DNA from: Planctomycetota bacterium | Lineage (GTDB): Bacteria; Planctomycetota; Phycisphaerae; SM23-33 | Direction: 5' to 3' | Assembly: GCA_034189755.1 (NCBI GenBank) | Contig: JAXIHJ010000104.1 | Span: 1 to 40,533 of the forward strand | Length of the DNA: 40,533 nt | Position numbers and translations under genes: made by a program | Notes under the pieces: generated by a model | What the model was told of the DNA's origin: nothing | The model's input: only the letters and a program-made list of their open reading frames with translations | Database searches by the model: none | Shown here: in pieces, positions 7,526 through 28,950 of the stretch | Layout: each line of letters begins with the position of its first letter | Numbering within the stretch: the stretch's first letter is position 1

Positions 7526-8197
7526 CTAATCGTCCGGCGAGCCGACGGCTACATACGAGCCGATCAGGGGTGCGAAACCGATTCGCACCATGTCGATTAG
7601 CTTCAGGCCCGCAGCCCGGAAGGCATCCTCGATTTGGCGGCGGCCATAGAAGTAAACGTTGCAGCGCTTCGTTTTCAGCCACAGACGCCGCGCAGGGTTC
7701 AGCAGCATACATCGCCTCGGAAAGCTAGCAACGATGCGCCGGCGAGAAAGGCTGTTCATCTTCCGGAGCATCGCCTCGGGCTGATCCACGTAGTCCATCA
7801 ACCCGATTGCGACGACCGCATCGAACGACTCATCGGTTTCGAACGCCTCCGCCGAAGCGCATGTGAAGCGGCAGTTTTGTCCCTGCCCGGCCCGCTCGGC
7901 CAGGTCCGCAGCCAGGTGTACCATCTCGTCCGACAGGTCGATGCCCGTTACGTGTTGAACCCCGGCCTGGGCGAGTGCAACGGCGACGCGGCCGGACCCG
8001 CAGCCGATTTCAAGGGCGCTTTCGGCCTGCCCGACACCCCGCAGACATGCCTCGACGCGCTGGGCCAGCTCGCGCCGGCGAAACAGGACGTCCACAATGC
8101 GCTGGACGGGTTTGCGTTGTCGGCCTTTTTCATAGATGGCGTCGAACCGCGCCGCGTCGCGCGTAAAGTAGTCGCGAACCTGATGTTGGTTTTTCAT
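7526..8197 (-). CDS. Class I SAM-dependent methyltransferase
   Basis: Motif I is 'LEIGCGSGRVAVALA' and post-I is 'GIDLS'. The ATG at 8197 overlaps the upstream stop as ATGA (translational coupling). Confidence 0.75.
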   Translation of the reverse strand: MKNQHQVRDYFTRDAARFDAIYEKGRQRKPVQRIVDVLFRRRELAQRVEACLRGVGQAESALEIGCGSGRVAVALAQAGVQHVTGIDLSDEMVHLAADLAERAGQGQNCRFTCASAEAFETDESFDAVVAIGLMDYVDQPEAMLRKMNSLSRRRIVASFPRRCMLLNPARRLWLKTKRCNVYFYGRRQIEDAFRAAGLKLIDMVRIGFAPLIGSYVAVGSPDD

Positions 8198-9225
8198 GTA
8201 AGCGCTTCCTGGAACGTAGTCCACCGGCGCGTCCGGAGCAGGCGGTCGAACCGCTTCAACGCCCGGTGGCGATTATAAGTGCCAATCCACTTCATCAATC
8301 GGCCTTGCTCGGCGAGCATCGGATGTTTCGCTCCGAGGTCCCACAGATTGTACCGGGCATCGTCGAATTCCCAGGGATGAATGTAGATAACAGGCGGGCA
8401 GCCGTAACGCCGCTCGTACCGCCGCAGGAAATAGCGGTTCAGCCAGAGTGGAAACAGCCGCAGGTAGAATCCGCCGCCGATGAGTATGCGGAACTTGCCC
8501 AGCTTGTAGACAGGCAGCGGAAACTCGACCAGGCCGTTCTTCAGGCGGTGCGGCCCGAACGGCGCATCGGCGACGCCGCCGTAGAAAAAGTTCTTCAGCG
8601 GCGCTATGCTCGAATCGTAGACGAAACCCTCATCGGCCAGGACGTCGAACGCCCAGCCGGTCTCGCCGGACATCGAGAACGAAGGCGCTCGGTAGCCCAG
8701 CGGCCGAACGCCCGTAGCCGACATGATGCGGTTGCGGCTGCGGACAACGTCGCGGCGAAACTCCTCCGGCGTCATCTTGTGGACGCGTTTGTGCGACCAG
8801 CCGTGGCAGGCGATTTCGTGGCCTGCCTCCACAATTCGCCCCAGCAGCGGCTCGACGTTATCTATGATGCTCGCCAGGACAAAAAAGGTTGCTCGCACAC
8901 CGTGGGTCTCCAGCAGGTCCAGCAGATGCGGCAGCGTCTCGTGCGCCCGCTTTGGAATGTTCTGTTCGGCGACAAGCTCCTCGGCGTAGGGCACGTAGTT
9001 GTAGTACTCCTCCAGGTCGATGGAAAGGATGGCCGGCGAAGGCGGCAGGTCGAGCTTCTCAGCCACCATGTTACGATAAGCCGAAACTGTCTTAGGTTGC
9101 GTCACGGCCGATTCGTCCTGCTTGCAGTGTTCTGCCCCCGCGCAGCAGACGATACCGAAATCTGCGGACAAATGCGAGGGTCCCTTTGGCGTCGGGGGCA
9201 GAAAGTACTTGCCACCATCCACCAC
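8194..9225 (-). CDS. Polysaccharide deacetylase family protein (NodB domain plus DUF3473-like C-terminus, resembling the PEP-CTERM-locus subfamily)
   Basis: 'LSIDLEEYY', 'ATFFVLASI', 'GHEIACHGWSH', 'GYRAPSFS' and 'GGGFYLRLFP'. The real start may be the internal Met at 9069, because 9225 leaves only 36 nt to the divergent gene. Confidence 0.8.
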   Translation of the reverse strand: MVDGGKYFLPPTPKGPSHLSADFGIVCCAGAEHCKQDESAVTQPKTVSAYRNMVAEKLDLPPSPAILSIDLEEYYNYVPYAEELVAEQNIPKRAHETLPHLLDLLETHGVRATFFVLASIIDNVEPLLGRIVEAGHEIACHGWSHKRVHKMTPEEFRRDVVRSRNRIMSATGVRPLGYRAPSFSMSGETGWAFDVLADEGFVYDSSIAPLKNFFYGGVADAPFGPHRLKNGLVEFPLPVYKLGKFRILIGGGFYLRLFPLWLNRYFLRRYERRYGCPPVIYIHPWEFDDARYNLWDLGAKHPMLAEQGRLMKWIGTYNRHRALKRFDRLLRTRRWTTFQEALT

Positions 9226-9261
9226 TTGAGTCGATACTAATACCGTTTCACCGACTTAATT

Positions 9262-10179
9262 ATGGATCGGGCGGAGAATTTTGGCGTGGCAAGAATACCC
9301 CGGAAGTCATGGTTGATATGCCTGGTGGTTGTGGTGTCATTAGCGACGTGTCTCGCCGATGACGAGACTTCCATGCACGGTTCGCCCCCTCGCATCGAGG
9401 CCATTACCAGGCCCAGTGAGGACGTAACGCTTTCATTTGTCAGGCCGGGTCAAATTGCCAAGGTGTTTGTCAAGGAGGGCGATCCCGTCAAAGTCGGCCA
9501 GGTGCTTCTCCAGCAGGATGACGCCGTGGAGCGGGCCGAACTGGAGCAGCTTAAGCTTCAGGCGGAGAATCTCACCCGCGTTCAGGCGTCCGAGGCCCAA
9601 CTCAAACAGAAGAAGGTGGACCTCAAGAAACTGGAGTGGGCCGAGAAGCGGGGCGCCGCAACGGAGCTGGAAGTCGAGCACGCCCGCTTGGACGTGTTGA
9701 TTTCCGAGCTGACGCTGGAATTGACGCGATTTCAGCAGGATCAGGACCGGCGCAAATACATTCAGGCGAAACTCACGATTGACCGCATGTCCCTGAACAG
9801 CCCGATTGCAGGTGTGGTGGAGCAGATTGCCATCGAGCCGGGCGAAGCGGTGGATGCATGGGTGCAGGTAATTCGTGTTGTGAAGATTGATCCGTTATGG
9901 ATAGATGTTCCCGTTCCGCGGACCTTGGCCATGAAGCTGCGGCGTGGCGGTGCAGCGCGGGTCGAGTTAGGCCCGGCCGGCGCCGTGGTTGTGGGCAAGA
10001 TCATTCACATTGCCGCAGTGGCCGATGCGGCCAGTAATACACTGACCGTTCGTGTGGAGATGCCGAATCCCACACGCAGGCCGGGAGGAGAGCACGTTAA
10101 GATATACTTTCCGCGGCACGTAGCCGGCGGGAAAAGTCACGCGATTGCATCACCATCGGCCTCTGAAAAGAGCAAATAG
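9262..10179 (+). CDS. HlyD-family membrane fusion protein (periplasmic adaptor), N-terminally anchored
   Basis: N-terminal hydrophobic segment 'WLICLVVVVSLATC', a lipoyl-like 'GQIAKVFVKEGDPVKVGQVLLQQD', a coiled-coil hairpin and 'SPIAGVVEQIAIEPGE'. Confidence 0.75.
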   Translation: MDRAENFGVARIPRKSWLICLVVVVSLATCLADDETSMHGSPPRIEAITRPSEDVTLSFVRPGQIAKVFVKEGDPVKVGQVLLQQDDAVERAELEQLKLQAENLTRVQASEAQLKQKKVDLKKLEWAEKRGAATELEVEHARLDVLISELTLELTRFQQDQDRRKYIQAKLTIDRMSLNSPIAGVVEQIAIEPGEAVDAWVQVIRVVKIDPLWIDVPVPRTLAMKLRRGGAARVELGPAGAVVVGKIIHIAAVADAASNTLTVRVEMPNPTRRPGGEHVKIYFPRHVAGGKSHAIASPSASEKSK

Positions 10180-10203
10180 GCCCCAAAAGGACAAGGAGTC
10201 ATT

Positions 10204-10575
10204 ATGGCTGAGAAGAAGAAGCCTTCGACCGACGAAGGAACCAATGTGGAAGATCAGGCACGCGAGCAGACCGGGCAGCAGCAGGTCCGTCTCCGTATCG
10301 ATGAGCGGAACATGAGCAGCTGTTATGCCAATGCCTTTCGCACCAACGGCACGGCCGAGGAGGTCATGCTGGACTTTGGCGTTAATCTGGTCAATCCGGC
10401 ATCGCAGCAGCAGGATAAGCCGGAAATTATTTTCCAGGTCAATCAGCGCGTCATCTTGAACTATTACTCGGCCAAGCGGATGGCGATTACACTCAGCCAG
10501 TTGATTCGCCGTCATGAAGAAGCGTTCGGCGAGCTGGAGATGGACGTTAACAAACGCCGCAAGAGCGGCAAGTAA
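10204..10575 (+). CDS. DUF3467-like small protein
   Basis: aaggag SD. 'YANAFRTNGTAEEVMLDFG...QRVILNYYSAKRMAITLSQLIRRHEEAFGEL' matches the remembered DUF3467 pattern (YsN..i.hs..EF.lDF...R.il.p.hAKrl...L...i..yE..fGei). Confidence 0.6.
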   Translation: MAEKKKPSTDEGTNVEDQAREQTGQQQVRLRIDERNMSSCYANAFRTNGTAEEVMLDFGVNLVNPASQQQDKPEIIFQVNQRVILNYYSAKRMAITLSQLIRRHEEAFGELEMDVNKRRKSGK

Positions 10576-10608
10576 GTTCTACGCTACTCGAAACGGAAGC
10601 AGGCATCC

Positions 10609-12537
10609 ATGTCGACGAAGCCAACGCAGGTTTCTCGGCAGAGGCAGGGCGGCGAATCGCCCACAACAGGTGAGATTGTTGACCGCCTCAGCCGGTTTGA
10701 CGGCCCGCCGGAGCAGTTTCTGGCCACGCTGCTGGCGGTGCAGTGTTATATCTCCGCCGCAGAGGGCGGAACTATTTTGCGGGTCAGCCCCGAGGGGCAG
10801 GTGGAAGTGCTGGCTGTTTACCCCGCCTTGCCCGAGGCGGCGACTGCGCCGGTGTGGCTGGCGCAATCGGTCGAATCGGCCGGGCAGGTTATCCAGGCGG
10901 GCCAGACGAACATCAAGCCGCTCCACAGCGAAGAATCACTCTACGGCGAGCCGGCTCATCATCATCTCGTGATGGTGCCGTTGCGTGGCGGCAGCGGCAT
11001 CCGCGGCCTGGCTGTCTTTATGATTGAAACGCGAGATCAGACCGTTCTTGCCGCCAGCCGGGAACGACTGGAACTTTCGACCAGCCTGCTAAGCCTCTAT
11101 GAGATGCGCCTGACGCTGCAACGCAGGAAGATAGACCTCGAACGGCTGCGAGTGGCGTTGGAAACCCTGTCGGCGGTCAACGAGCAGGATCGCTTCACCG
11201 GTGCGGGCATGGCCCTGTGCAACGAGCTGGCCAGCCGGTTCCAGTGCGACCGGCTAAGCCTCGGCATGTTGAAGGGGCGATACGTCCAGCTAAAGGCGCT
11301 CAGTCATACCGAGAAGTTCAGCCGCAAAATGAAGCTCGTCCAGGACATCGAGGCCGCAATGGAAGAATGTCTCGACCAGGACCTTGAAATCCTTCATCCC
11401 TCGGCTGACGAGGCCCCGTACGTCGCTCGGGCCACCAAAACTCTTGCCACACGCCACGGCCCGGCGACGGTTGTTTCGTTGCCGCTTCGCAAGGGTGGTG
11501 AGCCGATAGGCGTGCTGACGGCGGAGCGCCCGGTGGACCGCCCGTTCAGCCTCGATGAGATCGAGACGCTGCGACTGACCGCGGACCTGAGCACGGCCTG
11601 GCTGGCGAACCTTTTTGAACACGACCGGTGGTTCGGCGCCAGGTTGGCCGGTGCAGCCGGCAAGGGCCTTTCCGTCCTGCTGGGTTCCAAGCACACGTGG
11701 GCCAAGGTCGCAGCCGTTGCCGTCATCGTAGTAGTGTCGTTCCTGGTGTTTGCCAGGGGCGATTACAAGGCCGAGGCGACGTTTGTTGTCCAGGCGGTCC
11801 AGCGGCGGGTCGTTACGGCGCCTTTCGACGGCTATCTCGCCGATGTTTCGGTTGAACCCGGCGAGGTGGTCAAGGCAGGCCAGGAACTGGCCAGGCTGAG
11901 CACGAAGGACCTGCAATTGGAGCTGGACAGCCTAAAGGCCGAACGCGAAGTGTATCTCAAACAGGCTGATACCGCCATGGCCGCCGCCATACTTGATGAG
12001 CAAAAGAGGGCCGAGGGGCAGATCGCCAGGGCACAGGCGGCAAAAGTAGCCGCGCAGATCGAACTGCTGGAGTACCGCAAGCAGCAGGCAACGCTAATGG
12101 CGGCTATCGACGGACGAATTATCGGCGGAGACCTGTCCCGCCAGATCGACACCAAGATTGCCACCGGCGACATGCTGTTCGAAGTGGCGCCGATCGAAAA
12201 CCTTCGTGCGGAGCTGTCCATGCCGGAGGACCAGATCGCCGACGTGGTGGCCGCCATGGACGAGGCCCGAAAGCACGGGCGGGATATCCGCGGCGAACTG
12301 GCCACAGCCGGTGAGCCAGGCCAGCGAATCGAGTTCATCGTCGAGCGGATCAATCCCGTAGCCGAGGTGGTGGACCAGCAGAATGTCTTCAAGGTGCGTG
12401 TCCGCCTGGCGGGGCGGACCGGGCGTATGCTGCCGGGCATGGAAGGCAAGGCGAAGATTCACATCGGCAGGGCCAGTTACGCCTGGCTGTGGACTCGCCG
12501 ACTGGTCAACTGGTTGCGGATGAAGCTCTGGCTCTGA
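10609..12537 (+). CDS. Two GAF-like domains, one TM helix and a HlyD-type membrane fusion domain
   Basis: Two cytoplasmic GAF-like regions ('LVMVPLRGGSGIRGLAVFM', 'VSLPLRKGGEPIGVLTAER'), TM 'VAAVAVIVVVSFLVFA', then 'VVTAPFDGYLADVSVEPGEVVKAGQELARL' plus a long coiled coil. Confidence 0.7.
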   Translation: MSTKPTQVSRQRQGGESPTTGEIVDRLSRFDGPPEQFLATLLAVQCYISAAEGGTILRVSPEGQVEVLAVYPALPEAATAPVWLAQSVESAGQVIQAGQTNIKPLHSEESLYGEPAHHHLVMVPLRGGSGIRGLAVFMIETRDQTVLAASRERLELSTSLLSLYEMRLTLQRRKIDLERLRVALETLSAVNEQDRFTGAGMALCNELASRFQCDRLSLGMLKGRYVQLKALSHTEKFSRKMKLVQDIEAAMEECLDQDLEILHPSADEAPYVARATKTLATRHGPATVVSLPLRKGGEPIGVLTAERPVDRPFSLDEIETLRLTADLSTAWLANLFEHDRWFGARLAGAAGKGLSVLLGSKHTWAKVAAVAVIVVVSFLVFARGDYKAEATFVVQAVQRRVVTAPFDGYLADVSVEPGEVVKAGQELARLSTKDLQLELDSLKAEREVYLKQADTAMAAAILDEQKRAEGQIARAQAAKVAAQIELLEYRKQQATLMAAIDGRIIGGDLSRQIDTKIATGDMLFEVAPIENLRAELSMPEDQIADVVAAMDEARKHGRDIRGELATAGEPGQRIEFIVERINPVAEVVDQQNVFKVRVRLAGRTGRMLPGMEGKAKIHIGRASYAWLWTRRLVNWLRMKLWL

Positions 12538-12552
12538 TATAGAAGGTGTTTC

Positions 12553-14724
12553 ATGCCAGTGGACCGGCCCACATTCAGCGAATCATGGTACCGCGTTGTG
12601 GACTTGCGGCCGCGGCTGCGGTCGACGGTTCAGGTGCACCGCCAGCACTTTCGCGGGCACATGTGGCACGTTCTGCAAGACCCTTCGTCAAATCAATTCT
12701 TCCGCCTGAACGATGCGGCTTACTACTTCGTAGCCATGCTGGACGGCCGGAGGACCGTCGGCGAGGTTTGGCGAATCTGCAATGAGCAGCTCGGCGACAG
12801 CGCGCCGACGCAGGGCGAGGCTATCCAGTTGCTGGGCCAGCTCTATAGCTCAAACCTGCTCCAGGCGGAGCTGCCCCCCGACGCCGAAGGCCTGTTTCAC
12901 CGGTATCGCAAGCGTGTAACCCGGGAGGTGCAGGGTTATCTGATGAATCTGTTGTTCATACGGGTTCCGCTGATTGATCCGGACAACTTTCTGAACCGCT
13001 GGGTGGGGGTATTCGGCAAGTTGTTTACGAAAGTTAGCCTGCTGTTGTGGGTGGTGCTGATGGGGGTGGGTTTGTATTTTGTAATCGGCCGGGCCGGCGA
13101 GCTGTTTGATGGGGCAGCGGGCATTCTCGACCGGGAGAATCTGCCGCTTTTGTACCTGAGCTTCGTGATTATCAAGATTTTCCATGAGTTCGGGCACGCA
13201 TTTGCCTGTAAGGCGTTTGGCCGGGCCAGCGGCACCGGGGGCGAGGTCCACGTAATGGGCGTAATGTTCCTGGTCTTCACGCCCCTGCCGTATGTGGACG
13301 CCTCCAGCGCGTGGGCGTTTCGCCGGAAGTGGCACCGCGCCGTGGTGGGCGCAGCCGGCATGTTCGTGGAGTTGGCCGTCGCAGCCGTCGCGGCAATTAT
13401 CTGGGCAAACACCGCCCCCGGAACGCTGCGGGCCGTCTGCTACAACGTGATGTTCATCGCCTCGGTCTCATCGCTGATCTTCAACGGCAACCCTCTGCTT
13501 CGCTTTGACGGCTACTACATACTTTCGGACGTGCTGGAGATTCCGAATCTCTCTCAGCGGTCCAAGCAGTACATCTATTACCTCGTCAAGCGCTACGTCT
13601 ACGGAGTGCGCAGGTCTCATAATCCGGCCAACACCGGCGGCGAGAAGAGATGGTTCGTTTTTTACGGCATCGCCTCGACACTGTATCGCGTGTTCGTCTG
13701 TATTCGGATATTGCTGTTTATTGCGGACAAGTTGTTCATTGTGGGGGCTGTACTGGCTGTAGCAGCCGTCGTGGCCTGGGTGTTCGTGCCGCTGGGCAAG
13801 TTCCTGCATTATCTGTTCACCAGCGGGGAGTTGATGCGGGTTCGGGTACGAGCGGTGGGCTCGACACTCGGGGTGCTGTTGGCAATTGTAATTGGTGTCG
13901 GGCTGATTCCCGCGCCCGACCGCGGGCGGATCGAAGGCGTCGTCGAGCCGGTCCGTCTGGCAATCATGCATGCCCAGAGCGACGGCTTTATTCAGGACAA
14001 CTTCCTGCCATCCGGCAGCAGTGTCAGGCCCGACCGCGACATTCTCGTCCGCGCCGAGAACCCCCAGCTCCAGGCCATGCTGAAACAGGTGCGAGCTGAA
14101 CGGGACATCTACCTGACCCAGCGCCGGCTGGCGATGGTGCACCAGCAGGCCGCCGTAGGAGCCTTGACCGAAAAGATCAAGGCCCTGGACAATCGCATCT
14201 CGCGGACACGGCGCATGGTGGACGACCTGTCGCTTAGGCCTCGTATCGAGGGGCAGTGGATTGCCCCGGAAATCGACCGGACCGTGGGATTATACATCCG
14301 TCGCGGTGAAAGGATCGGCATCGTGGCCAGTCCGGACGACGTTTTTGTTCGTGCGATTGCCGACCAGGAAGTCTCTATAAACGAGATTGATTTCAGCCGC
14401 GTGGAGATACGGGTCAAGGGTCGGCCTGACCTCCAATGCACCGGAAGAATCCTGAACATTCTGCCGGTAGGCCAGCAGCGCCTGCCGTCGGCTGCACTGG
14501 GCTACGCCGCGGGCGGATCGATCCAGACCGACCCTCAGGACAGGCAGGGCACCAGGGCCGCTGAGCGAGTCTTCGAGGTCCGCATCGCTCCGGACGAAGA
14601 CCGCGATATCCGACTGCTGAGCGGCCAGCGGGTCATCGTGCGGTTTGAGACGCCTCGCAAACCGCTGGCGCTTCAGTGGTTGCGATCGCTCCGGCAACTG
14701 ATCCTCAGGAGGTTCCACATCTGA
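12553..14724 (+). CDS. Fusion protein: PqqD-like domain, M50 (site-2 protease) membrane metalloprotease and a HlyD-like periplasmic domain
   Basis: PqqD-like 'FFRLNDAAYYFVAMLDGRRTVGEVW...AIQLLGQLYSSNLL'. HEFGH lies at 13183-13197 in a TM segment. The second S2P motif is 'NGNPLLRFDGYY'. The C-terminal half has a coiled-coil/beta-barrel adaptor-like sequence. Confidence 0.75.
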   Translation: MPVDRPTFSESWYRVVDLRPRLRSTVQVHRQHFRGHMWHVLQDPSSNQFFRLNDAAYYFVAMLDGRRTVGEVWRICNEQLGDSAPTQGEAIQLLGQLYSSNLLQAELPPDAEGLFHRYRKRVTREVQGYLMNLLFIRVPLIDPDNFLNRWVGVFGKLFTKVSLLLWVVLMGVGLYFVIGRAGELFDGAAGILDRENLPLLYLSFVIIKIFHEFGHAFACKAFGRASGTGGEVHVMGVMFLVFTPLPYVDASSAWAFRRKWHRAVVGAAGMFVELAVAAVAAIIWANTAPGTLRAVCYNVMFIASVSSLIFNGNPLLRFDGYYILSDVLEIPNLSQRSKQYIYYLVKRYVYGVRRSHNPANTGGEKRWFVFYGIASTLYRVFVCIRILLFIADKLFIVGAVLAVAAVVAWVFVPLGKFLHYLFTSGELMRVRVRAVGSTLGVLLAIVIGVGLIPAPDRGRIEGVVEPVRLAIMHAQSDGFIQDNFLPSGSSVRPDRDILVRAENPQLQAMLKQVRAERDIYLTQRRLAMVHQQAAVGALTEKIKALDNRISRTRRMVDDLSLRPRIEGQWIAPEIDRTVGLYIRRGERIGIVASPDDVFVRAIADQEVSINEIDFSRVEIRVKGRPDLQCTGRILNILPVGQQRLPSAALGYAAGGSIQTDPQDRQGTRAAERVFEVRIAPDEDRDIRLLSGQRVIVRFETPRKPLALQWLRSLRQLILRRFHI

Positions 14725-14725
14725 C

Positions 14726-16714
14726 GTGACGGACCTGCCGAGCACAACCTGGCGGATGCTGGCCCAGCGGACGGCGGGTACGGAACTACCTAAGGGCCTC
14801 GATGCCGTATGGGACGGCACCGTGGGGTTTGCCGGGCGGCTTCTGCCGAGGCGGAATCGCTTCCTGCGCCGGGCGGAGCAAATCGTCGCCATGGAGGGGC
14901 AGTTCACCAAGTTGTCGGACGCCCGGCTGCGCGAAGTTGCCGCTGATCTGCGGGCCATATTTCGTTGCGGGCGTGAGACCCAGGTGGAGTTGGACCGTGC
15001 CTTTGCGGTCGTTCGGGAAGTAGCCTGGCGTGAACTTGGCGAAAGGCCGTTTCCGGTGCAGATGGCCGGCGCGCTGGCGATCGAGGCCGGCTGCATCACG
15101 GAGATGGCCACCGGCGAGGGCAAAACCCTGACGGCTACCATGCCTGCCGCGGTGGCGGGCTGGCGAGGCCGGGGCTGCCACGTCATTACCGTCAACGATT
15201 ACCTCGCCAAGCGAGATGCGGAATGGATGAGCAAGGTATATGGCTTTTGCGGGCTGACCGTAGCGCACGTTGCTCAGGGCATGCCGCCGCCGCAGCGCCG
15301 GGAGGCCTACCGGGCGGATATTACTTATGGCACCAATAAGGAGGTAACGGCCGACTTCCTCCGCGACAGGCTGGCGCTGGGCCGGTTGCAGGGATTACCG
15401 GCCGCACTGCTGGCGAAGATCACCGGCGGTTCCGGCAGCGGCACCGACCGCATCGTACAGCGCGGGTTGCAATACGCGATTGTTGACGAGGCCGACTCGG
15501 TCCTGGTGGACGAGGCGGTTACGCCGCTGATTATTTCCGGCCAGGCCCCGAACGCCGAGCAGGTCGAGGCCTTTCAGCAGGCCGCCAGGCTGGCCGGCGA
15601 ACTCAAGCCGCAGCGCCATTACCGCGTGAACCATCGCTACCACGAGGTTGACCTGACCTCGGCCGGAAAGGAATACCTGGCTGAGTTGGCCGCGGAGATG
15701 GGCGGAATATGGGCTGGTGCAAGGCGCCGGGAGGAACTTGTCGTTCAGGCCCTGACAGCCAGGCATTTCTACATGTTGGGAAAGCAGTATGTTGTGGACG
15801 ACGGCAAGGTGGTGATTGTCGATGAATTCACCGGCCGGCTGATGCCCGACAGGGAATGGCGCGACGGGCTGCACCAGGCCGTCGCCGCCAAGGAAGAACT
15901 GGAAATCGAGCTGCCGAAGGATACCTACGCCCGCGTGAGCTTTCAGCGGTTCTTCAGAATGTACCGCAAGCTTGCGGGCATGACCGGCACGGCCACCGAA
16001 GGCCAGGGAGAGTTCTGGCAGATTTACCACCGTCCTACGGTGGTGATTCCCACAAATCGCTCCTGCATTCGTAAGCACTATCCGGACAAGGTCTTCGCCA
16101 CCGCCGAGGCCAAGTGGCGAGCGATCGTGGCCGAGATTAGCCGCTTTCACCAGCAGGGCCGGCCGATCCTGATTGGTACGCGCAGCGTCCGTGCCAGCGA
16201 GCATTTAAGCCGGCTGCTTACCGACGAGAAACTCGAACACCAGGTGCTAAACGCAGTTCGCCACGCCGCCGAGGCACAGATAGTCGCCGGTGCCGGCCAG
16301 CGAGGCAGAATAACGGTGGCGACGAACATGGCCGGACGCGGCACGGACATCAAGCTGGGCCGGGGCGTGGCCAAGTTAGGCGGGTTGCACGTAATCGCCA
16401 CGGAGCGGCACGAAGCCGGGCGCATCGACCGCCAGCTTTTCGGCCGGTCCGCACGCCAGGGCGACCCCGGCAGCGCACAGGCCATAGTGAGCCTGGAAGA
16501 TGAACTGGTTCTCCGCCACGCGCCCCATCTGGCGGGGCTGCTCCGCAAGCGGCTTGGGGGGCGAGATGGCGAAATCTCCTCACCGGTCAGCCGGAAGGTG
16601 TTTGATATTGCCCAACGCCGGGCCGAGCGGCTTGCGCTGCGGCAACGAAAGGCCGTCTTGAGGACCGATGACTGGTTGGACGAATACCTCGGATTCGCCG
16701 GCAGTGAGCGGTAA
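14726..16714 (+). CDS. SecA-like DEAD-motor ATPase paralog, C-terminally truncated (662 aa)
   Basis: GTG start 1 nt after the upstream stop. Walker A 'MATGEGKTLTATMPA', Walker B 'IVDEADSVLVDEAVTPLIISG', PPXD 'YVVDDGKVVIVDEFTGR', and NBD2 'LAGMTGTA', 'ATNMAGRGTDIKLG', 'GGLHVIATERHEAGRIDRQLFGRSARQGDPGS'. It ends about 90 aa after this motif. Confidence 0.85.
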   Translation: MTDLPSTTWRMLAQRTAGTELPKGLDAVWDGTVGFAGRLLPRRNRFLRRAEQIVAMEGQFTKLSDARLREVAADLRAIFRCGRETQVELDRAFAVVREVAWRELGERPFPVQMAGALAIEAGCITEMATGEGKTLTATMPAAVAGWRGRGCHVITVNDYLAKRDAEWMSKVYGFCGLTVAHVAQGMPPPQRREAYRADITYGTNKEVTADFLRDRLALGRLQGLPAALLAKITGGSGSGTDRIVQRGLQYAIVDEADSVLVDEAVTPLIISGQAPNAEQVEAFQQAARLAGELKPQRHYRVNHRYHEVDLTSAGKEYLAELAAEMGGIWAGARRREELVVQALTARHFYMLGKQYVVDDGKVVIVDEFTGRLMPDREWRDGLHQAVAAKEELEIELPKDTYARVSFQRFFRMYRKLAGMTGTATEGQGEFWQIYHRPTVVIPTNRSCIRKHYPDKVFATAEAKWRAIVAEISRFHQQGRPILIGTRSVRASEHLSRLLTDEKLEHQVLNAVRHAAEAQIVAGAGQRGRITVATNMAGRGTDIKLGRGVAKLGGLHVIATERHEAGRIDRQLFGRSARQGDPGSAQAIVSLEDELVLRHAPHLAGLLRKRLGGRDGEISSPVSRKVFDIAQRRAERLALRQRKAVLRTDDWLDEYLGFAGSER

Positions 16715-16936
16715 CACCGTAGCCGGCTTGCCCGGAAGTTGGCGAACCGGAAATACGAAAAACGCTTGACTATGGTTTGGTGGCCGGATACGTTGCAAAG
16801 TGGCGATAATACCCTGGTAAGGCCGACGTGCCGACGTGCCGATGAGCCTAAACCAGGCTGGAGTATATGTGATATTGCTTAAGTGAACCTTTGCGGAGTG
16901 GCTCAGAGCTTTGCCGTGAAGGGAAGGAGTGCCTAG

Positions 16937-19900
16937 ATGTCTATTCCTGCCGAGAGTCCCCCCGAGAACCTCTTGCCCCAGTTCGAAAGCCTCGAACAAA
17001 GACTGCTGCTGACAACGCTGATGGGCGGAGAGTTTTTCATCTACCTAAACAGCCAGGGTGAAGCGGTCCGCGTCGATTTGGACGTCGGGGCGACGGAAGA
17101 CTCCGAGGACGCCATCGTGGAGTTGTTCACCTACGACGACAATTGGGGCGGCGTGCACGACCTGGTCGGCATTCCCGGTGACGATACCGCCGGCCTGCGG
17201 ATTAACGACCAGCAGCAATGGGGCGACGGTGTCGAAGACATCGTCGAATACGACGTCGAGAATGGCACGTGGTCGTGGATCAACTACGAAAAGGACGAGT
17301 TCGGCAATGACAGCATTCGCGGCGCCGAGACGGAGATCTTCTCGATCTACATAGCGATGTGCACACCCGATACGGTGCTGACCATATCGACGCTGACCTC
17401 TTCGGACATTCCCGAAAGTGCAGCCGGCTGGCCCGCCTGGTATAACGATATCAATACCTGGGATTCGACGACCCTGCCGCTGCTGGCCGTTATCGCACAT
17501 GATCCGGTGAATGTCTTTGCGCCGGCCGGCTCCGGTGGCGTGATCGTTGGGACGCAGCGTTCGCCCGAGGCCGGTGTCGACGGCGACAAGCTGCGGCACA
17601 TTGCCGTGGCCAACGCCGACCCGGAAACCGGCCTGTCCAACATGGGCTGGTTCCCCGGCGGAAACCTGGCGCCCGGCGTTTCGGTATTCGGCGAACCGTT
17701 CCAGATGATCAACCTGCCGGTCGGCTCCGACGTTCATTCCATCGCATCCGACTCCGCCGGCAATATGTTCGTGGTGGACCTCAGCGCCTTTCAGGGTGTC
17801 ATCGTCAACGACGATCCCGGCGGGGAGGGATTTCTGGGCGAGGACGTCAGCTCGCTTGCGTCCGATTCGGCCGGGACGTTCTATGCGGTGGACAATGCAC
17901 TGACGCCCCTTATCAACAGCCCGACCAATAGTAACATCGGGGCCAACATAACGGGCATCACGGCCGGCGATGCAGGGCTGTTCTACGCCGTTGATGAGGA
18001 GACCCACCATTTGCTTTCATGGTCGGTGGCCGACGGGCTTACCGACATCGGCGAACTGATCGACGCCAACCAGAGCCAGTACCGCTACGAAGGTGTTTGC
18101 GGGCTTGATTACAATTCGAGCAGCAGCCTGATGTATGCGATCGGGTTTGTAGTGGACACCGACCCGGCTGTTGCGCCGGATGCGCCCGATCCGAGCGGCC
18201 CGTTCCTGATTACCATTGATGTAACCAATGCACAGGTTACCAGCAGGATGCTGATAAACGACGGCAACGGCACGTTTACCGCGATGGCTTTCGATCCCGC
18301 CGGAACCTGCTTCGCCGTCAACGGGGCGACCAACGAGCTGGTTACCATAGACCCGGCCGACGGCGCTATTACGGTCGTGGGCACGTTGCTGGACGGTGCG
18401 ACTTCCGTTACGGGTGTCGTTGGCATCGACTTCCTCGGCCAGGACATGTACGCCGTTACCGGCGACCACTTGTATCGAGTGAGCCCCGCAACCGCCGCGT
18501 GCACGGACCGCGGCGCAGTGGCGCTACCTGCCGACATGGGCTCGCTGGCTTATGACCCGACCCGGCCCGGCTCGCTTTACACGGCTGTCGATATCGGCAC
18601 GAACGAGTATCGCTTCTGTCGCATCCCGCTGGGCGCTTCGCTGGTCTGGGCCGACGTTGACGGTGTGTCGACGCTTATTGACGTGCTGGTTGATTCTACG
18701 GAAGACACGTGGGTCTGGCAGAACGTCTACGCGCTGGATTACAACAACGGTGACGGCCTGCTGTACGGGGTCGGCACGGCCGTCGATCTGGACACCCAGG
18801 ACGCCGGCGTTCCACCGGCGGGCCGGCGGCTGATTACAATCGACCCGGTGACCGGCCTGGTTACCGACGTCGGCGCGCTGACAGGTGCGGCCGACGTGCA
18901 AAGCCTCGTCTTCGATGGCGGCGGCACGCTCTACGGCCTGGACGCCACCACCGACGAGCTGTACGACATCAACCCGGCTACGGGCGCCGGTGTGTTGGCG
19001 GCTACAGTGGATGTTTCCAATCTGGAGGGTATCGAGTTTGTCAACATCGGCGCAAACGAGGTCCTGTACGGCGTTACGGCCGACGAGCTGTACGTCTTTG
19101 ACCTCAACCTTGGTGCGGGCACTGCCACCGGAACGCTTCTGGGCGACACCGGCCAGACTACGCTGAGTTCGCTGGCATTCGACGGCAGTGGCAGCCAGGA
19201 CAACATACTGTGGTCCACCGCCAGTGACGGCACGAACTTTTACCTGACGCGCGTAGACCTGTCCAGCGTGCTGGTTGCACTGAACGGCTGGAATCCCGTT
19301 ACGCGGCAGGCGCTGCTGTTCGACGCGGCTGAGCCTGCATACGCCTATGTCGGCATTCACGCACTGGAATTCGGGCCGGGGGACGTGCTCTACGGTGTCG
19401 GCACTATCGTCAACCTCGACCCCGGCAATGTAGCTGACCCGGCCTCGTTTGGCCCGTACCTGATTACCATTGATACGACCACAGGCCTGGTTACCCAGGT
19501 GGTTCCGGGTACGCCGCTTGTAACGGACCTGTCCTCGCTGGCATACGACGCCACCGCCACGTGGTACGGCGTTGTGCCCGACGTTGCGGGCGACCAACTG
19601 GTGACGGTGAACATGGCCACCTCGGCGACGACTCTGGTCGGCGTGCTCACCGCCGCCGCTGCGCTGACTGGCGTAACGGGCCTGGACTTTGAAGACGGTT
19701 CGCTCTATGCGGTAACGGACGATTCACTTTACGAAGTGGATGCGGCCACGGCTGTGTGCACGCTGTCCGGCCTGACGCCGTTTACCGGCCTGAGCAGCCT
19801 GACCGGCGACGAGACGGATACGCAGCAACTGTGGTCCACGGCGCTGTTCGGCGACGAGTATTACCTCGTCAGCCTGGCGACCGACGCCGAAGCGGGGATC

Positions 19901-22900
19901 CAGGACATCGGGCGCGTAATCATGGCCGGCACACTTGCCGGCGCGTTCACCACCGACGGCAACGTTGAAGTAATCGAGATGGGGTTCCTGTTCGGCAACG
20001 TGCTGGTCGGGCACAATCTGGATACACTCATTGCCCGCGTCGGCGGTGGGGCGGTGCCGGTTCCGGCGCCGACAAATTTCGTAACCCCCGACGAAAGCAG
20101 GATATGGGCCGGCGGCGTCATCACCGGCGTTTACAGCCGCTCTGAAACGCTGTATTCGGCAATCGAGGCCGACAACGACCTGACAATTGCGGATCCCGAC
20201 ACGCTGATCATGGAACACGAGGTCCGCGTCGCCGCTGACGCCCACGACGCCGCCTGGCTGGCCGGCGACCTGGTGGACCACTACAACGACTCGATGGAAA
20301 CAGCCCAGTTCCTGAATCACCCGTCGGGCGACTTCACACTGTTCGGTTCTTTTCCGTCGGATCCGTACGATTCCCTTGAGGACTGGTACGCACTGCCACT
20401 GATGGCCGGCCAGACCATCGTCATGGACGGCATGGTTATTAGTTGCGCCGCCTACCTGTACGACTGGGACGGCAACTGGATGGACAGCTTCGGCTTTGAG
20501 ACCATCGAGGACGAGGGCCTCGCCTCGATTGGTCAACAGATCAAGCCAATGACTTTCACCGCCCCGTCAGCGGGTGTCTACTACCTGATGTTGTATGATT
20601 TAGAACCGCGAGGCGGCGCCTATTTACTGAACTTTACCAACGGCCCAGCGGCGGCGCTGGGTGGCGTCAGTGTCGTCGGCGACTATTACGGTATGTTTAC
20701 GGGCACCGGCTCGGCCGCGGACAAGGGAGCCAACATCGCCGCCAAGTGGGGCGGCGACCTAGGCGGCGTCGTGATTACAGGCAGCAGCTACTACACGGTC
20801 GCCTACGCCGCCTACGGCGGAAACCTGGTAGCCTTCCAGGCCGGCGAAATTGGGACGCTCATTGACGGGACCTACACCACCAACACGATTATCTCCGACA
20901 GCAACATCGGGCGGGTAGCCTCAACGTCGGGCTTCCTCGACGCCAACATCCTCGCAGGCAGCAATTTCTACAACCCCAATGCGTACATCCAGAACATCTA
21001 CGCCGCCACCGACTACATTTTCGCAAACGCCATCATGGCCACGGGCAGCATCGGCGTAATCGAGATCGAAAACGATTTGCAGTATGGCGTACTTATCTCA
21101 GTCAACAGCAACGATACGAATTATACCCCGGGGATGGGGTCGCGGCTGGACCTGCTTGACATCGGCGGCGATTATCACTGCTACGGTGGGGCGATGCTTT
21201 CCCATGGTCCCGGCGGCGACATTGGGTTTGTCTACGTCGGCGGGACTATACTCGTCGATTACGGCGATTGGATCGGTGCGGTTACGGAGGAGCTTTATGA
21301 GAATGGCGAGACCTCCATTCTCAACGACGACGGCGGCGGTCGGACGACCGTTTTGCCCGTCGAAACCACTTTGCTGGATGAAAACGGCGCCCCGGTGCTG
21401 GATGAAAACGGCGACGAAGTTACCTACACGCCGACCTATTCCTTTTGCTACATACCCGTCGACGACGTGATGGGCGGCGTGGGCGGCGTGGTCGCCAATT
21501 TCCGGGTCAACGGCTCGGCCGTGTTTAATACCACCGGTGTGGTCCAGGTTTCCTCGCTGGACATTTCCGATTGGAGGCCGGGCGGCGGCGGCGACCCCTA
21601 TACCAGCCTGACCTTCGCAGGCGGCGAGACAAACATCTACTATCTCCACGACCACCACACCCATCCGGACTATGCGGCCCGGACGCTCGACATCCATATA
21701 GATGGGAATCTGGTTTCAGCGAACCTCGGCCAGGGCGGATGGGGCGCATCATCAAGCGCGGTGTCCAGAGATACGACCGTGGCAAACCCGTATCCGGTGG
21801 ATCAGCTCGATATTGAAAAATTGACGGTTACGGGCGATCTCGGCGCCCAGACGGGCACCACGGGCGCCTGGCTGCACGGCTGGGACGATGCAGAGGTCAT
21901 CCCGGATGTGGACGACGGCTCGGATGCGGATACCGTCGCCCAATACTATCAGGAGGCCCAATACGGCTGGTTCCACGGCAAGCACAACGGCGTGCAGATA
22001 TGGGGCAATCTGGAGAATCTGAGGGTCAATGGTTCTCTGGGTGACATGCGCGTCAAGAACAACCCACGTATCGATGCCGCATTGGCGTTTACCGGCCGAA
22101 TCGGCACCGTTCGCGTCAATGCGGACAACTACACAGCCGCCGGAGATTGGGACGGTATCTGTGGGATTCTCTGGGCCAGGAGGCGGATCGACGAGGCTTA
22201 CGTCGGCGACGGCCTGGCCGACGACGGCGGGGCGGATGTGGCGCGGGCGGCCATTATGTCCGGCTACAGTATCGGCAGGGTCGAGGTCAACGGGCCTTAC
22301 TTCGTGGTGGACGGCCAGGCCTACCATGAGCTGAACGGCTCGATCATCGGCTTCAGCAATGACATCGGCACAACCTTTGATGAGGCGGGCAACCCGGTTG
22401 TAACGACCTATCACGGCGTCGGCCAGGTTATAGGCCTCAACGGCGCGCGGATGACGGCCAACGTCGTCGGCATGAACCTGCTAACGTTCCGCTGCTACGG
22501 TGCGCCCTACGCCGCCGCCGCCGGCATCGGCACGGTAAGCTTCTCCGGCGTGGGCGCTGAGATCGAAGGCTCGGAAATTACCGGCGATTACGTTCAGAAG
22601 GTCTACACCAGCATTAACTCCAATGGCATCAGCAACTCGCACATTTCCGGCCATGACCCGGTATCGGGCGAATATGCTGTCGGCGAGGTAATCGGCGGCG
22701 GGCCTGGCATGAACCGCGTTTTCGTCAGCGTTACCGGCAGCGACATCGGTACTGTCAAGGGCCTCGGCGCCAATGCCGACATCCTTAGCAGCGTATTCGT
22801 TTCCACCGCCGGCATGCATTACATCGGGGCCAAGGACCTGTACGAAAACGGCATCCACATGCCCGGCACCGTCGGAACGATGAACGCCACGCACGACATG

Positions 22901-25900
22901 ATCTCGAATACGGTCATGGTCGGTGCGGTCGACCAGATTAAGGTCAGCAATGATTTCGAGCTTAACAGCTTTACCGTCGCCGGCAAGATCGGCCCGATGG
23001 ACATTGGCGGGGCCTTTATCGACTCCTATCTGTCTCTACAGGGTCCGTCGATTGCCAACCTGAAGTCGCTGGTGGTCAACGGCGATATTTCGGGCGAGAT
23101 TGTCTGTGCCGGCAAGATCGGGCAGATTATTTCCCGCAACGGCGGCATCAGCGCCGATATAAGCACAATCGTCGCCGAATGGGACGGCGACATTAACTTG
23201 ATCCAGACGGCAGAGGGTTTTACCGGCAAGCTGTACGTGTCCGGTTCGATGGGCCGGTTCATCTCAGGCCTTTCGCTGGGCGAGAGTCCCGCCCAAACGG
23301 GCGAGACCCAAACGTTCGACATCCTTGGCGACCTGAACTACCTGAAGGTCGGCAGCAGGTCGGTGTCGGCCCATCTGTACGCCGGCATCAACGTCGGCGG
23401 CGACGTCGGCACGATGGATATCAGCGGCACGCTCTACGCCAATGTCATGATCAACGGCAGCATGAAATCGCTGATCGTCGGGGGGCAGATGGGCGGCCTG
23501 TTGAACTTCACAGAGAACTGGACTGGCGCCGATGGGAACGCGTGGCCCGGCGTATGGACTTTCAATGGCGATATCGACCAGTTAGCCAGTCAGGACATTC
23601 AGAGCAATCGCGGCCGAGTGGCGGGCGATGTCGCGGCGGCGGGGACGGTGATGGCATACACCAGGCATCATGCCAGGAGCGTCGACCAGTCGGTCCTGTT
23701 TAACATCAGCGCCGACGGTATGGGCTTTGGCTTGATCGCCCGCCGGTCGGACACCGCTGAGGATACGTACTATCTCGCACGGGTGGTCAGCGGCGGCGCA
23801 GTGGGCGATTCCCTGCGAATCTACAAGGTCGTCGGCGGCGTGGAGACCGAACTGGCCGACACCGGGCTTTTGTACGACGCAGCCGGCACCGATTTCATGC
23901 TGCGGTTCGCCTGCACGAAGCAAGGTTCCAATACGCTGTTGCAGGTGAAGATGTGGGATGCGTCCGTGGCGGAACCGGCGGCATGGTCGGCGGAGGTTAC
24001 CGACAATGAAGCCGCTCTTCAGGGCGTCCGTGGCCGGTTCGGCCTGTACTACGGCCTGTCGGACGTGATCGAGGCGCTGATCGACAACTATACCGCCGAT
24101 TTCTCCCGTGGCCGTCTGACCGTCATGGGCAAGCTCAATTCGATGAAGTTTCCGACGACCGGCGACCTGTTCGCCGACTTGGCTATCGGCGGGTCAATCA
24201 AGAGGCTCAACCTCACCGGCGGCAGCATACTCGGCGACCTCACCAGCCGATATGGTGCGATCGAGGGAATCAACCTCAACGGCGGTTCCGTCATTGGAAA
24301 TGTTACGGCCGTTTCGATAGGCAACATCTCTATCCGCAACGGCAACGTAATGGGCGACGTTACCGCTACCGACGGCAATATCAAGTCGTTGAGCGTTACC
24401 GGCGGCAATCTGGATGCTGAGGTTACGGCCCGGAACGGCCGAATCCAGCGTCTCTCCGTCAACACCGGTGATATCCTGCCTGGCCATACCATCGAAGCCG
24501 AGGCCGGCTTTGGGACCGTTTCCATTCGCAACGGCGACCTGCTCAGCGACCTTATCTCCGGCCGGAACATCAAGTCGCTGACCATCCGAGGCAGCGATAT
24601 AGGCTCTGCGCTTAATCCCGTCATGATCAGCGCCGAAACCGGCATCGACAGGGTTCAGACGGACGGGGCCGTGGTAAACTCCGTCATACGGTCGGGCAGC
24701 AAAATCGGCCAACTCAACGTGAACAGCGTGCAAGATTCGATTATTTCAGCCGGCTGGCATATTGGCAGCGCCAGGATAGGGACCAACGTAACCGGCTCGC
24801 ACATTCTGGCAGGCTACGACGTCGGGCCTGACGGGGCGGTCGGTGGCGGCGACGACGTGGCGCACTCCGGCGACTTTAAGAGCCTGGACGTCGGCGGCAA
24901 CTTCAACACTTCGGTCGCCGCAGCCGGCATCGACCCAGGCGCCAGCGACGACTTTACAAACCTTGCCGACAACACCGACAACAACGGCGTCAGCAGCATT
25001 TTACGGGCAAACGTCCGGGGCGCCGCAGTCGGTAGCTTCATCCAGGCCGACACGTATATCGACCCGAACGCACCGGCCGGCGCCGTGGTGCCCGTCAAGA
25101 ACGACCCTGTCGTGGCTCCAGGCGGCAGTGTGGACTTCGGCCCGGAGACAGCCAACAACACGCTGACCATAGGCAACCTGACATTGACGCTGACGGGGGC
25201 CGGACTGGGCAGCTATCACGCCGCGACCAACACGCTGTACCTGAACCGCACGACCACCAGAAGCAATTTGAGGCTCGACAACACCGGTGCGAATATCGAC
25301 ATCACCGTTGTCGGCGCCGAAGATGCCGAGCTAAGCGGCTTGCAGACCAGTGGGGCCGTAACCCTGGCCGACACGACCGTCCACGGCGCCATCAAGAGAC
25401 TTACCGCCGCCAACATTGCTAACGGAGCCGTGTGGAACCTGTATGGCGGCATCGGGTCGGCTTCGCTGGGCGGCATGACCAACGTAAACGCCACCACCGG
25501 CGAGCTTGGCACGTGGAGGATGGACGCGTTGACCGGCGGGTTCCTGACTGCCGACGCGATCAAGGGTTTCTTTGCAGCCGGCTCGGTTACCGGCAACCTA
25601 ACGGCGCTGCTGGGCAACGCCAGGATTGACATACGCGGCGGCGACCTGAACGGCGACGTGACGATTCTCGGCACGGCAACCGGCTTGGCGGTCAGCGGCG
25701 CCGTTACCGGCGTTGTGAACGTTACCAACGGCGACTTGCAGACGTTCCGGGCCGGTTCACTGTCCGGCAGGGTCGAGGCCGCCCTTGGCCTGAGCAGAAC
25801 GGTAACCATCACGGGTGCCTTTAGCGGCAGCTATCGAACTGGAATGGGCATCGGCCGATTTGCCTCTGACACATTCTCAGGCCTGCTGAGCACCAGCGGG

Positions 25901-28949: not shown

Positions 28950-28950
28950 G

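Follow-up and report, generated by a model that had tools for sequence, protein, structure and literature searches.

The DNA considered here, called the window throughout, is the whole 40,533-nucleotide stretch of contig JAXIHJ010000104.1 of a Planctomycetota bacterium of the class Phycisphaerae (assembly GCA_034189755.1). On its forward strand lies a gene for a three-part fusion protein, composed of a PqqD-like domain, an M50-like membrane protease and a HlyD-like periplasmic adaptor. PqqD-like domains are related to the recognition elements (RRE) of ribosomally synthesised and post-translationally modified peptides (RiPPs). An initial annotation of the locus had described the fusion and missed the fact that it is one subunit of a conserved five-gene system. 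The five genes, encoding a short adaptor, a DUF3467 protein, a GAF-HlyD adaptor, the fusion and a truncated SecA paralogue, stand head to tail with gaps of 1-33 bp, and a further gap of 222 bp separates the SecA-like gene from the gene of a giant protein. Coordinates of these features are collected in Table 1, together with giant genes found beside the system on plasmids.

Table 1. Features of the window (forward-strand positions) and giant genes adjoining the system on plasmids
Feature	Position or replicon	Strand	Description and basis
Short periplasmic adaptor	9262-10179	+	Membrane fusion protein (MFP)/HlyD-RND type, 305 aa; N-terminal signal or lipoprotein-like anchor
DUF3467 protein	10204-10575	+	123 aa, predicted cytoplasmic; Pfam PF11950, E 1.4e-17
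GAF-transmembrane-HlyD adaptor	10609-12537	+	642 aa; cytoplasmic GAF, one membrane helix 364-382, periplasmic adaptor
PqqD/RRE - M50-like protease - HlyD-like adaptor fusion	12553-14724	+	723 aa, ATG start
PqqD/RRE-like domain, residues 27-103	12631-12861	+	Predicted cytoplasmic; Pfam PqqD, AlphaFold2 model, PDB profile matches
M50-like multi-pass membrane protease core, residues ~137-450	12961-13902	+	NCBIfam, hydropathy, model
HEFGH zinc-binding/catalytic motif, residues 211-215	13183-13197	+	Translation
NGNPLLRFDG, second motif of site-2 protease type, residues 311-320	13483-13512	+	Third zinc ligand Asp319; translation
Periplasmic HlyD/MacA-like adaptor region, residues ~453-704	13909-14664	+	Foldseek, sequence profile, DSSP of model
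Alpha-hairpin of adaptor region, residues 504-557	14062-14223	+	DSSP of model; beta domains on both sides
Truncated SecA paralogue	14726-16714	+	662 aa; Pfam SecA_DEAD, SecA_PP_bind, P-loop_SecA
Giant protein, candidate cargo	16937-27637	+	3,566 aa; open reading frame, upstream ribosome-binding site AGGAG
N-terminal leader of giant	16937-17017	+	MSIPAESPPENLLPQFESLEQRLLLTT; LEQRLLL core at 16991-17011
'LEPR-XLL domain-containing protein', ~12,900 aa	Pseudosulfitobacter plasmid		With SapC
Giant, 8,848 aa	Methylosinus plasmid		Followed by DUF3467, adaptor, fusion, SecA-like gene, adaptor, TolC
Giant, >8,100 aa	Alisedimentitalea plasmid		Motif just upstream of annotated start
Giant, 10,603 aa	Pontibrevibacter plasmid		LEPR-XLL
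Giant, 4,033 aa	Thalassospira plasmid		LEPR-XLL; TolC present, SecA-like gene absent
Giant, 10,518 aa	Mesorhizobium plasmid		Upstream adjacency only, N-terminus not part of leader set
Giant, 10,051 aa	Rhizobium plasmid		Upstream adjacency only, N-terminus not part of leader set

The fusion protein and its operon partners

The N-terminal domain of the fusion was recognised by Pfam PqqD (PF05402), which scored 26.1 bits on residues 39-103 and passed its gathering score of 23.4. When the first ~120 residues of 20 diverse orthologues from several phyla were made into a profile, it matched only PqqD structures in the PDB (3g2b with E 0.0076 and 5sxy with E 0.32). In the AlphaFold2 model of the fusion, with a mean predicted local distance difference test (pLDDT) score of 75.9, residues 27-99 form three strands (27-33, 36-42 and 49-52) followed by three helices (54-62, 69-83 and 87-99), the pLDDT of these blocks being 76-89. 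As modelled, the domain has the winged-helix topology of RRE domains, which bind the leader peptides of RiPPs. Hydropathy and the model predicted 7-8 membrane helices between this basic domain, devoid of a signal sequence, and the adaptor; such topology is consistent with a cytoplasmic RRE and a periplasmic adaptor.

The protease core carries both motifs typical of site-2 proteases, and translation confirmed HEFGH at 13183-13197, the place given by the initial annotation. The best relative was the daptide-type HExxH intramembrane metalloprotease of NCBIfam (NF041824), matching residues 20-410 with E 5.6e-49; its 167 bits fall short of the 300 bits required of an equivalog. The YydH/LiaK family (NF058609) matched with E 7.7e-8. 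Pfam Peptidase_M50 (PF02163) scored 18.0 bits on the fusion, under the gathering score of 27.2, which was passed by more distant full-length relatives (30.1 and 34.7 bits), and the protein should therefore be seen as part of a divergent M50-like branch and as an atypical member of the Pfam family. Both zinc motifs lie within predicted helices and membrane segments (hydropathy and model), and a beta hairpin is modelled at residues 232-250. The aspartate of the second motif was invariant in the alignment of fusion proteins (A1), and HExxH was kept along with the aspartate of N.[NS]P...[FY]D in 93 of the 93 orthologous loci, which suggests that the enzyme is very probably active.

With such relatives, one could take the fusion for a device of RiPP-type maturation and export of small peptides, as implied by the database names 'PqqD family peptide modification chaperone' and 'putative peptide zinc metalloprotease (YydH-like)'. 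The presence of a PqqD/RRE domain and the best family matches, daptide and YydH/LiaK leader proteases, agree with this idea. However, the score is far under the equivalog cut-off, and no daptide biosynthesis genes were found near the fusion in the window. The conserved neighbourhood, moreover, contains no RiPP-modifying enzymes, precursor peptides or ABC (ATP-binding cassette) exporters; the conserved partners are the SecA-like protein, adaptors, TolC and giants instead. Since neither precursor nor tailoring genes are conserved, we rejected this explanation and leave it scarcely any probability.

The last ~270 residues of the model adopt an adaptor fold, matched by Foldseek to MacA, MexA, AcrA and EmrA at probability 1.0 (MacA structure 3fpp, E 6.6e-11; range for MacA, MexA and AcrA, 7e-11 to 1e-9). 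A sequence profile of this region also matched EmrA (E 0.0014). Pfam HlyD families gave no match in the window fusion itself; HlyD_3 was passed by the sister proteins described below. Taken together, Pfam, NCBIfam, the AlphaFold2 model with its beta3-alpha3 N-terminal domain and adaptor hairpin, Foldseek and the PDB profile matches bear out all three domain assignments of the initial annotation, namely a PqqD-like N-terminus, an intramembrane zinc protease and a HlyD-like adaptor. It should be added that in a subgroup of close orthologues (P0061, P0084, P0031 and similar; 820-890 aa) the adaptor region contains a partly low-complexity insertion of ~140 residues (A1 columns ~670-840), and in loci with this insertion the GAF-HlyD partner is longer, too (780 aa in L004).

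Directly downstream of the fusion, the SecA-like protein keeps the Walker motifs, both nucleotide-binding domains and the preprotein cross-linking domain. Its alignment to Bacillus subtilis SecA covers residues 19-607 of the latter only; the scaffold/wing, the two-helix finger and the C-terminal tail are missing, and Pfam SecA_SW and SEC-C were not found in its 662 residues. The protein stays under all NCBIfam equivalog cut-offs for SecA and SecA2 (652.7 bits vs 814). Contig L104 encodes a canonical 1,236-aa SecA, with SecA_SW and SEC-C, 8 kb from the operon, and the truncated protein is thus an additional paralogue beside canonical SecA. Lacking the two-helix finger, it cannot act on SecYEG in the way SecA does. 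Some orthologues in RefSeq are named 'prepilin peptidase' or 'DEAD/DEAH box helicase' (L085, 18077-20101; L086, 17204-19120; L088, 17142-19127; L098, 14186-16147), and with 47% identity to the window protein these names are wrong or uninformative.

Among the remaining partners, the short adaptor was recognised by Pfam HlyD_D23, HlyD_3 and Biotin_lipoyl_2 and by NCBIfam RND_mfp (112.9 bits, over the cut-off); its N-terminus is hydrophobic and ends ...SLATC. The second adaptor combines Pfam GAF (residues 203-327) with HlyD_3/HlyD_D23 (residues 399-611), and hydropathy found a single membrane helix in it. DUF3467 proteins are present in the operons of Phycisphaerae, Nitrospira and Proteobacteria, including those on plasmids. 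We considered a SecB-like chaperone as identity of the DUF3467 protein and found no support for it: PDB searches by sequence and by profile returned nothing meaningful, the AlphaFold2 model was poor (pLDDT 59.9), and Foldseek gave no match below E 2.

A scan of positions 8900-17100 for promoters and terminators returned nothing over the shuffled expectation, and the operon structure hence rests on the 1-33-bp gaps and on synteny. Upstream, a polysaccharide deacetylase/DUF3473 gene on the reverse strand (8194-9225) abuts the operon start and leaves ~36 bp for a possible divergent promoter. The forward-strand open reading frame 8266-9240, overlapping the deacetylase gene, is probably spurious; neither it nor the frame 7634-8278 had relatives in any locus.

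Conserved gene order and the tagged neighbours

The fusion has more than 7,600 homologues. The 120 matches listed are 60-74% identical and mostly full-length, and those with source names come from Planctomycetota/Phycisphaerae metagenome bins. An exhaustive search of representatives of clusters at 50% identity returned 4,192 clusters at E <= 1e-30, and the listed proteins were nearly all 715-730 aa long. Family size and near-constant length rule out a chance fusion. Full-length orthologues were found in at least 597 species genomes of many phyla. At 38-42% identity over the whole length they occur in Verrucomicrobiota, Kiritimatiellae, Desulfobacterota, Nitrospira, Methylomirabilia, Flavobacteriales and Alpha-, Beta- and Gammaproteobacteria, a Pseudomonas isolate being one of the gammaproteobacterial carriers. 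Taxon labels of metagenome bins are unreliable, e.g. 'Anaerolineales' was attached to copies with 58-62% identity. The names in databases vary as well: apart from 'PqqD family peptide modification chaperone', orthologues are called 'putative peptide zinc metalloprotease protein', 'site-2 protease family protein' or 'HlyD family efflux transporter periplasmic adaptor subunit'.

Gene neighbourhoods were analysed in 80 genome loci, the best-scoring of the at least 597. Across them the order [short adaptor]-[DUF3467]-GAF/HlyD-fusion-SecA-like is conserved. The SecA-like gene directly follows the fusion in 66 of the 70 loci with enough flanking sequence, and the GAF-HlyD gene directly precedes it in 62 of 64. 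The short adaptor was detectable in 47 of the 80 loci, and DUF3467 in 23. L106 (10001-21559) seems to be a further copy of the system, from the sample that also yielded L105, with the fusion and the SecA-like gene and no GAF-HlyD gene upstream; there, a 2,333-aa RHS/YD-repeat dockerin protein with the leader LEPLEPRLMLTAGP directly follows the system genes. SapC-family genes, otherwise familiar from type I S-layer secretion operons, recur in or beside the proteobacterial systems and the Desulfovibrionales-labelled L053 (L051, 6962-7780; L078, 9736-10437; L085, 17263-18084; L092, 1258-2055; also L062 and L079). A SapC relative was searched for in the window and was not found.

The giant protein of the window yielded a weak C-terminal match to a C39-like peptidase as its only Pfam match and has no RTX repeats. 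The match, to Peptidase_C39_2 with E 0.002, lies at 27377-27514 (residues 3481-3526), where plausible catalytic motifs GCAPTAAG...NHAVVAVGYD are visible. The leader of the giant is devoid of a hydrophobic core of Sec type. On residues 15-25, NCBIfam NF012209 (LEPR-XLL) scored 13.7 bits against a cut-off of 17, which makes the segment a near-threshold variant of this tag. Directly downstream of the giant gene and on the same strand are a family-2 glycosyltransferase (27790-28530) and a PMT_2-type, protein mannosyltransferase-like membrane protein (28867-30591), which may glycosylate the cargo.

In several long Phycisphaerae contigs no giant gene was seen next to the operon, and for the first three of them this was initially counted against the giant as cargo. 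With tblastn, L008 was the sole locus with a homologue of the window giant, carrying the same leader and placed directly after the SecA-like gene. The wider adjacency surfaced not by homology but by a search for the leader motif, i.e. for open reading frames beginning with [F/L/M]E.[LM]E[P/E/Q/D]R.[LM][LMF][S/T]. Tagged frames, most of them over 1,000 codons, were found near the system in L004, L008, L014, L038, L039, L040, L047, L049, L059, L063, L072, L077, L078 and L106. In summary form, the tag reads [F/L]E.LE[P/Q]R.LL[S/T] and stands on neighbours in the window and at least 14 further loci. The gap to the nearest system gene was less than ~500 bp in 10 of the 15 tagged cases, the window included. 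These loci belong to bins of Phycisphaerae/Planctomycetota, Kiritimatiellae (L063), Nitrospira (L047), Gammaproteobacteria (L072) and Burkholderiales (L078), and the N-termini from L039, L047 and L078 passed NF012209 with 30.7, 24.8 and 31.4 bits, respectively. Tagged neighbours include RTX/cadherin-like proteins, calpain-like proteases and an RHS/YD-repeat protein, so that calpain-like or RHS toxin domains are found beside the system as well. No arginine or lysine precedes the LEQR core of the window leader; a strongly basic stretch does so in the L008 homologue (MSYSNRKRSPRRPPLFETLEERLLLTT, 9000-9200) and in nearly all other leaders, and sometimes holds RR, reminiscent of twin-arginine signals.

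It had been proposed, as attractive and unproven, that the N-terminal LExRLLL segment of the giant is the target of recognition and cleavage. Comparative data lend strong support to this proposal: the motif heads large neighbours of orthologous operons in distant phyla and plasmid giants directly upstream of the operon, and a variant of it heads giants by distant M50-HlyD relatives. The initial annotation had also held that occurrence of the fusion without comparable neighbouring cargo would speak against the proposal. We did find such occurrence in many Phycisphaerae loci; nevertheless, we do not regard it as a valid objection, because planctomycetes scatter dozens of tagged proteins over the genome (52 in Tuwongella immobilis, PMC8567305). 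Within Phycisphaerae, the strong conservation of the system (60-74% identity) and its frequent distance from tagged genes suggest that many clients share it. Here, and in Planctomycetota outside this class, the operon probably serves many dispersed LEPR proteins as a common, housekeeping-like pathway, and the window giant would be one such client.

The same separated loci could point to a device unrelated to giants, serving either regulated intramembrane proteolysis or efflux of small molecules, with the adjacency to LEPR genes coincidental or regulatory. M50 proteases classically act in signalling (RseP, SpoIVFB), and adaptors classically serve efflux pumps. However, the adjacency recurs in phyla where tagged proteins are rare and is usually immediate and on the same strand, and the leader motif shifts in step with the M50-HlyD subfamily (see below). 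Furthermore, neither anti-sigma/sigma genes nor pump genes of the RND (resistance-nodulation-division), MFS (major facilitator superfamily) or ABC types are conserved nearby. We therefore regard such a device as very improbable.

Plasmid-borne and sister cassettes

Alphaproteobacterial plasmids gave the clearest arrangement, with a giant gene (4,000-12,900 aa) directly upstream of the system and on the same strand in seven of the eight informative records. The leaders read from plasmid giants were ...EALEPRFLLSADP, ...DTLEPRVLLNADV, ...DPMEPRVLLSADP and ...EPIEPRILLSADP. In Alisedimentitalea (L092; NZ_CP123586.1, ~183224) the annotated start of the giant 'calcium-binding protein' seems to be too far downstream, and the leader VEQLEPRLLLAADF is in frame just upstream of the annotated ATG. 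The Thalassospira marina plasmid (L095, 193606-212571) has a LEPR-XLL giant, DUF3467, HlyD, fusion, adaptor and TolC; since the SecA-like gene is absent from this otherwise complete operon, the motor must be encoded elsewhere or be dispensable.

Apart from these orthologues, more distant sister M50-HlyD fusions with 23-27% identity were identified. In Azospirillum, TolC, two adaptors and the fusion come after a giant DUF4347 protein starting with MALEPRFMFDAAG. The same order is found on IncF-type plasmids of Escherichia coli and Citrobacter after a 4,457-aa DUF4347/Ig-like giant, which starts with MTTIKNRRLRPRAHRFALESRQLFDGAAL (...FALESRQLFDGAAL) and has the leader LESRQLFDGAA. The IncF cassette is flanked by insertion sequence (IS) elements and occurs in 24 of 5,426 complete E. 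coli genomes; L101, for instance, lies on E. coli plasmid NZ_CP104683.1 (96967-116712), and carriers are clinical and wastewater E. coli and Citrobacter. Giants of the sister cassettes start with LE[P/S]R.[ML]FD[GA]AA, and in the examples read the leader subtype differs by fusion subfamily, i.e. LLSAD in the main family vs [ML]FD[GA]AA in the sister one. The sister cassettes have neither a SecA-like gene nor DUF3467. TolC adjoins the system in the Methylosinus, Thalassospira, Azospirillum, E. coli and Magnetospirillum cassettes. No ABC transporter was seen in the annotated plasmid and sister cassettes, and none was found in the window operon.

These cassettes bear on the possibility that the fusion is a module of retention and release, where giants would leave the cell C-terminus first through a conventional ABC type I system encoded elsewhere, the RRE-M50-HlyD complex would only hold the leader at the inner membrane and cut it so that the adhesin is released or matures, and the GAF domain would be a small-molecule switch, analogous to control of LapA by LapG/LapD. 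Several neighbouring giants do carry RTX repeats, one of the adaptors is joined to a GAF sensor domain, ATPases are entirely absent from the sister cassettes, and sapC and tolC genes are classic accessories of type I systems. However, no ABC gene accompanies the cassettes of cargo, TolC, adaptors and fusion, even on the mobile, IS-flanked IncF plasmids of E. coli, and a pure protease would have no need of TolC and three different adaptors. The tight coupling with a SecA-type preprotein motor (the 66 of 70 loci above) and the window giant devoid of RTX repeats also speak against it, and we consider retention and release to be unlikely.

Proposed export pathway and its relation to known systems

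The three-part fusion, the conserved operon and the recurrent adjacency to LEPR giants together point at what is probably a machine for recognising, trimming and exporting tagged giants. On balance, we take the fusion to be the inner-membrane core of an ABC-less, type-I-like secretion and processing system for large surface proteins tagged with LE[P/Q]R.LL. In the pathway that we infer, the cytoplasmic PqqD/RRE-like domain would bind the short conserved leader of the cargo, and the M50-like zinc protease would cut the leader off at or in the membrane. The HlyD-like region of the fusion, the GAF-HlyD adaptor and the short lipoprotein-type adaptor would build a periplasmic tube docking on a TolC-type channel of the outer membrane. 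The truncated SecA, an ATPase motor with a preprotein clamp and no SecY-inserting finger, would feed the unfolded giant N-terminus first in an ATP-driven manner; this direction would suit chains too long to finish translation before export starts. The GAF domain and DUF3467 may be regulatory or chaperone accessories.

Several observations weigh against this pathway. The window leader is below the NF012209 cut-off, has glutamine for proline and is devoid of the basic N-terminal stretch of most others. In many Phycisphaerae loci, tagged genes are absent within a distance of 10 kb, and in tag-rich planctomycetes some adjacency could be due to chance. A TolC gene was looked for in the window and not found, with three adaptors present, and no inner-membrane channel is evident besides the M50 membrane core. 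The Thalassospira operon and the Azospirillum and E. coli sister cassettes have no SecA-like gene; the motor is consequently not universal, and the pathway leaves the energy source of these cassettes unexplained. The RTX repeats on several neighbouring giants are classically tied to C-terminal type I signals. It should also be added that the best-scoring loci are biased towards close relatives of the window fusion, and that all the evidence is computational; binding of the leader, the site of its cleavage and the transport with its direction are deduced from it.

By analogy, the system may be regarded as a variant of tripartite adaptor/TolC exporters. It resembles type I secretion (HlyB-HlyD-TolC), and especially the peptidase-containing ABC transporters (PCATs) that export bacteriocins, in that HlyD-type adaptors, with TolC adjoining in several cassettes, would span the envelope. 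As in type I and PCAT systems, the candidate cargo would be dedicated and is often adjacent, large and repetitive or RTX-bearing, and SapC occurs as accessory. The recognition of an N-terminal leader and its cleavage by a protease built into the inner-membrane component, as proposed here, is a further likeness to PCATs. In contrast to type I systems, no ABC transporter, their defining component, was found; the candidate motor is the truncated SecA, and there are three distinct adaptors. PCATs possess a cytoplasmic C39 cysteine protease, whereas here an intramembrane M50-like zinc enzyme is joined to an RRE domain as the putative recognition module. Unlike classical RTX cargo with its C-terminal signal, proteins of thousands of residues would here carry an N-terminal one.

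In daptide (NF041824) and YydH/LiaK (NF058609) proteases the likeness spans the PqqD-like region and the HExxH membrane core. The present protein differs from them in the fused periplasmic adaptor, in its context of SecA-like protein, adaptors and TolC with no RiPP tailoring enzymes, and in its presumed substrate, which is a giant and not a short peptide. With site-2 proteases such as RseP, SpoIVFB and MjS2P it shares the HExxH membrane helix, the aspartate ligand in N..P....DG and a multi-pass core with a beta hairpin; in contrast to them it is devoid of PDZ/CBS domains, adds an RRE and an adaptor, and no sigma-factor link was seen. SecA-like domains of Omnitrophota giants are likewise without scaffold/wing and tied to giants. 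They are, however, like those of actinobacterial giants, part of the giant in cis, whereas here a separate gene encodes the protein in trans, in an operon with adaptors and an M50 protease. Lastly, exosortase/PEP-CTERM, rhombosortase/GlyGly-CTERM and sortase/LPXTG also pair a short tag on many otherwise unrelated surface proteins with one dedicated membrane protease, and the genes with the tag adjoin the protease gene in some cases and are dispersed in others. The present tag differs from those in being N-terminal and not a membrane helix, and the protease in being M50-like and fused to a secretion adaptor.

Studholme et al. (2004), as cited in PMC8567305, proposed the N-terminal consensus RRLxxExLExRxLLA as a novel export signal of planctomycetes. 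In T. immobilis, 20 of the 52 tagged proteins were detected in the proteome (PMC8567305). Chlorobium chlorochromatii proteins of 20,647 and 36,806 aa carry an N-terminal LEPRxLL; sapC and tolC flank their genes, and a secA acquired by horizontal transfer is expressed along with them, which was read by the authors as type I secretion (bioRxiv 10.64898/2026.03.19.712371). Omnitrophota giants hold the SecA motor and preprotein-binding domains without scaffold/wing, and a role in self-export was proposed for them (bioRxiv 10.1101/2023.11.21.568195). Full-text searches, which did not reach subscription journals, returned passing mentions only: neither the operon nor any machinery serving the LEPR tag was described, and the tag was not connected with M50-HlyD proteins.

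Giant surface proteins, whose chains reach thousands to tens of thousands of residues, act in adhesion, predation and symbiosis. To our knowledge, their export route is largely unknown; the short N-terminal LExRxLL/LEPR-XLL tag has been listed on them as a putative export signal for two decades, and we know of no machinery assigned to it. The present data link this tag with one defined set of genes, which is widespread and highly conserved and draws on three fields otherwise kept apart: RiPP pathways, with their leader-recognition domain and membrane protease; type I secretion, with its conduit of adaptors and TolC; and motors of SecA type. More tentatively, and with slightly less than even confidence, we propose that the full gene set with TolC constitutes a previously unrecognised class of secretion, independent of ABC transporters and SecYEG, in which an LE[P/S/Q]R leader would be read by the RRE and trimmed within the membrane and proteins of more than 10,000 residues would be threaded N-terminus first across both membranes. 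It would then be the machinery for the planctomycete 'LExRxLL' signal of 2004 and for LEPR-XLL giants, present in many phyla and with a sister form on E. coli IncF plasmids.

If confirmed, the new secretion route would make cargo predictable from the leader alone and would give the right names to thousands of genes that at present go under 'PqqD family chaperone', 'HlyD family adaptor', 'prepilin peptidase' or 'DEAD/DEAH helicase', and the sister cassette on E. coli plasmids could serve as a tractable model.

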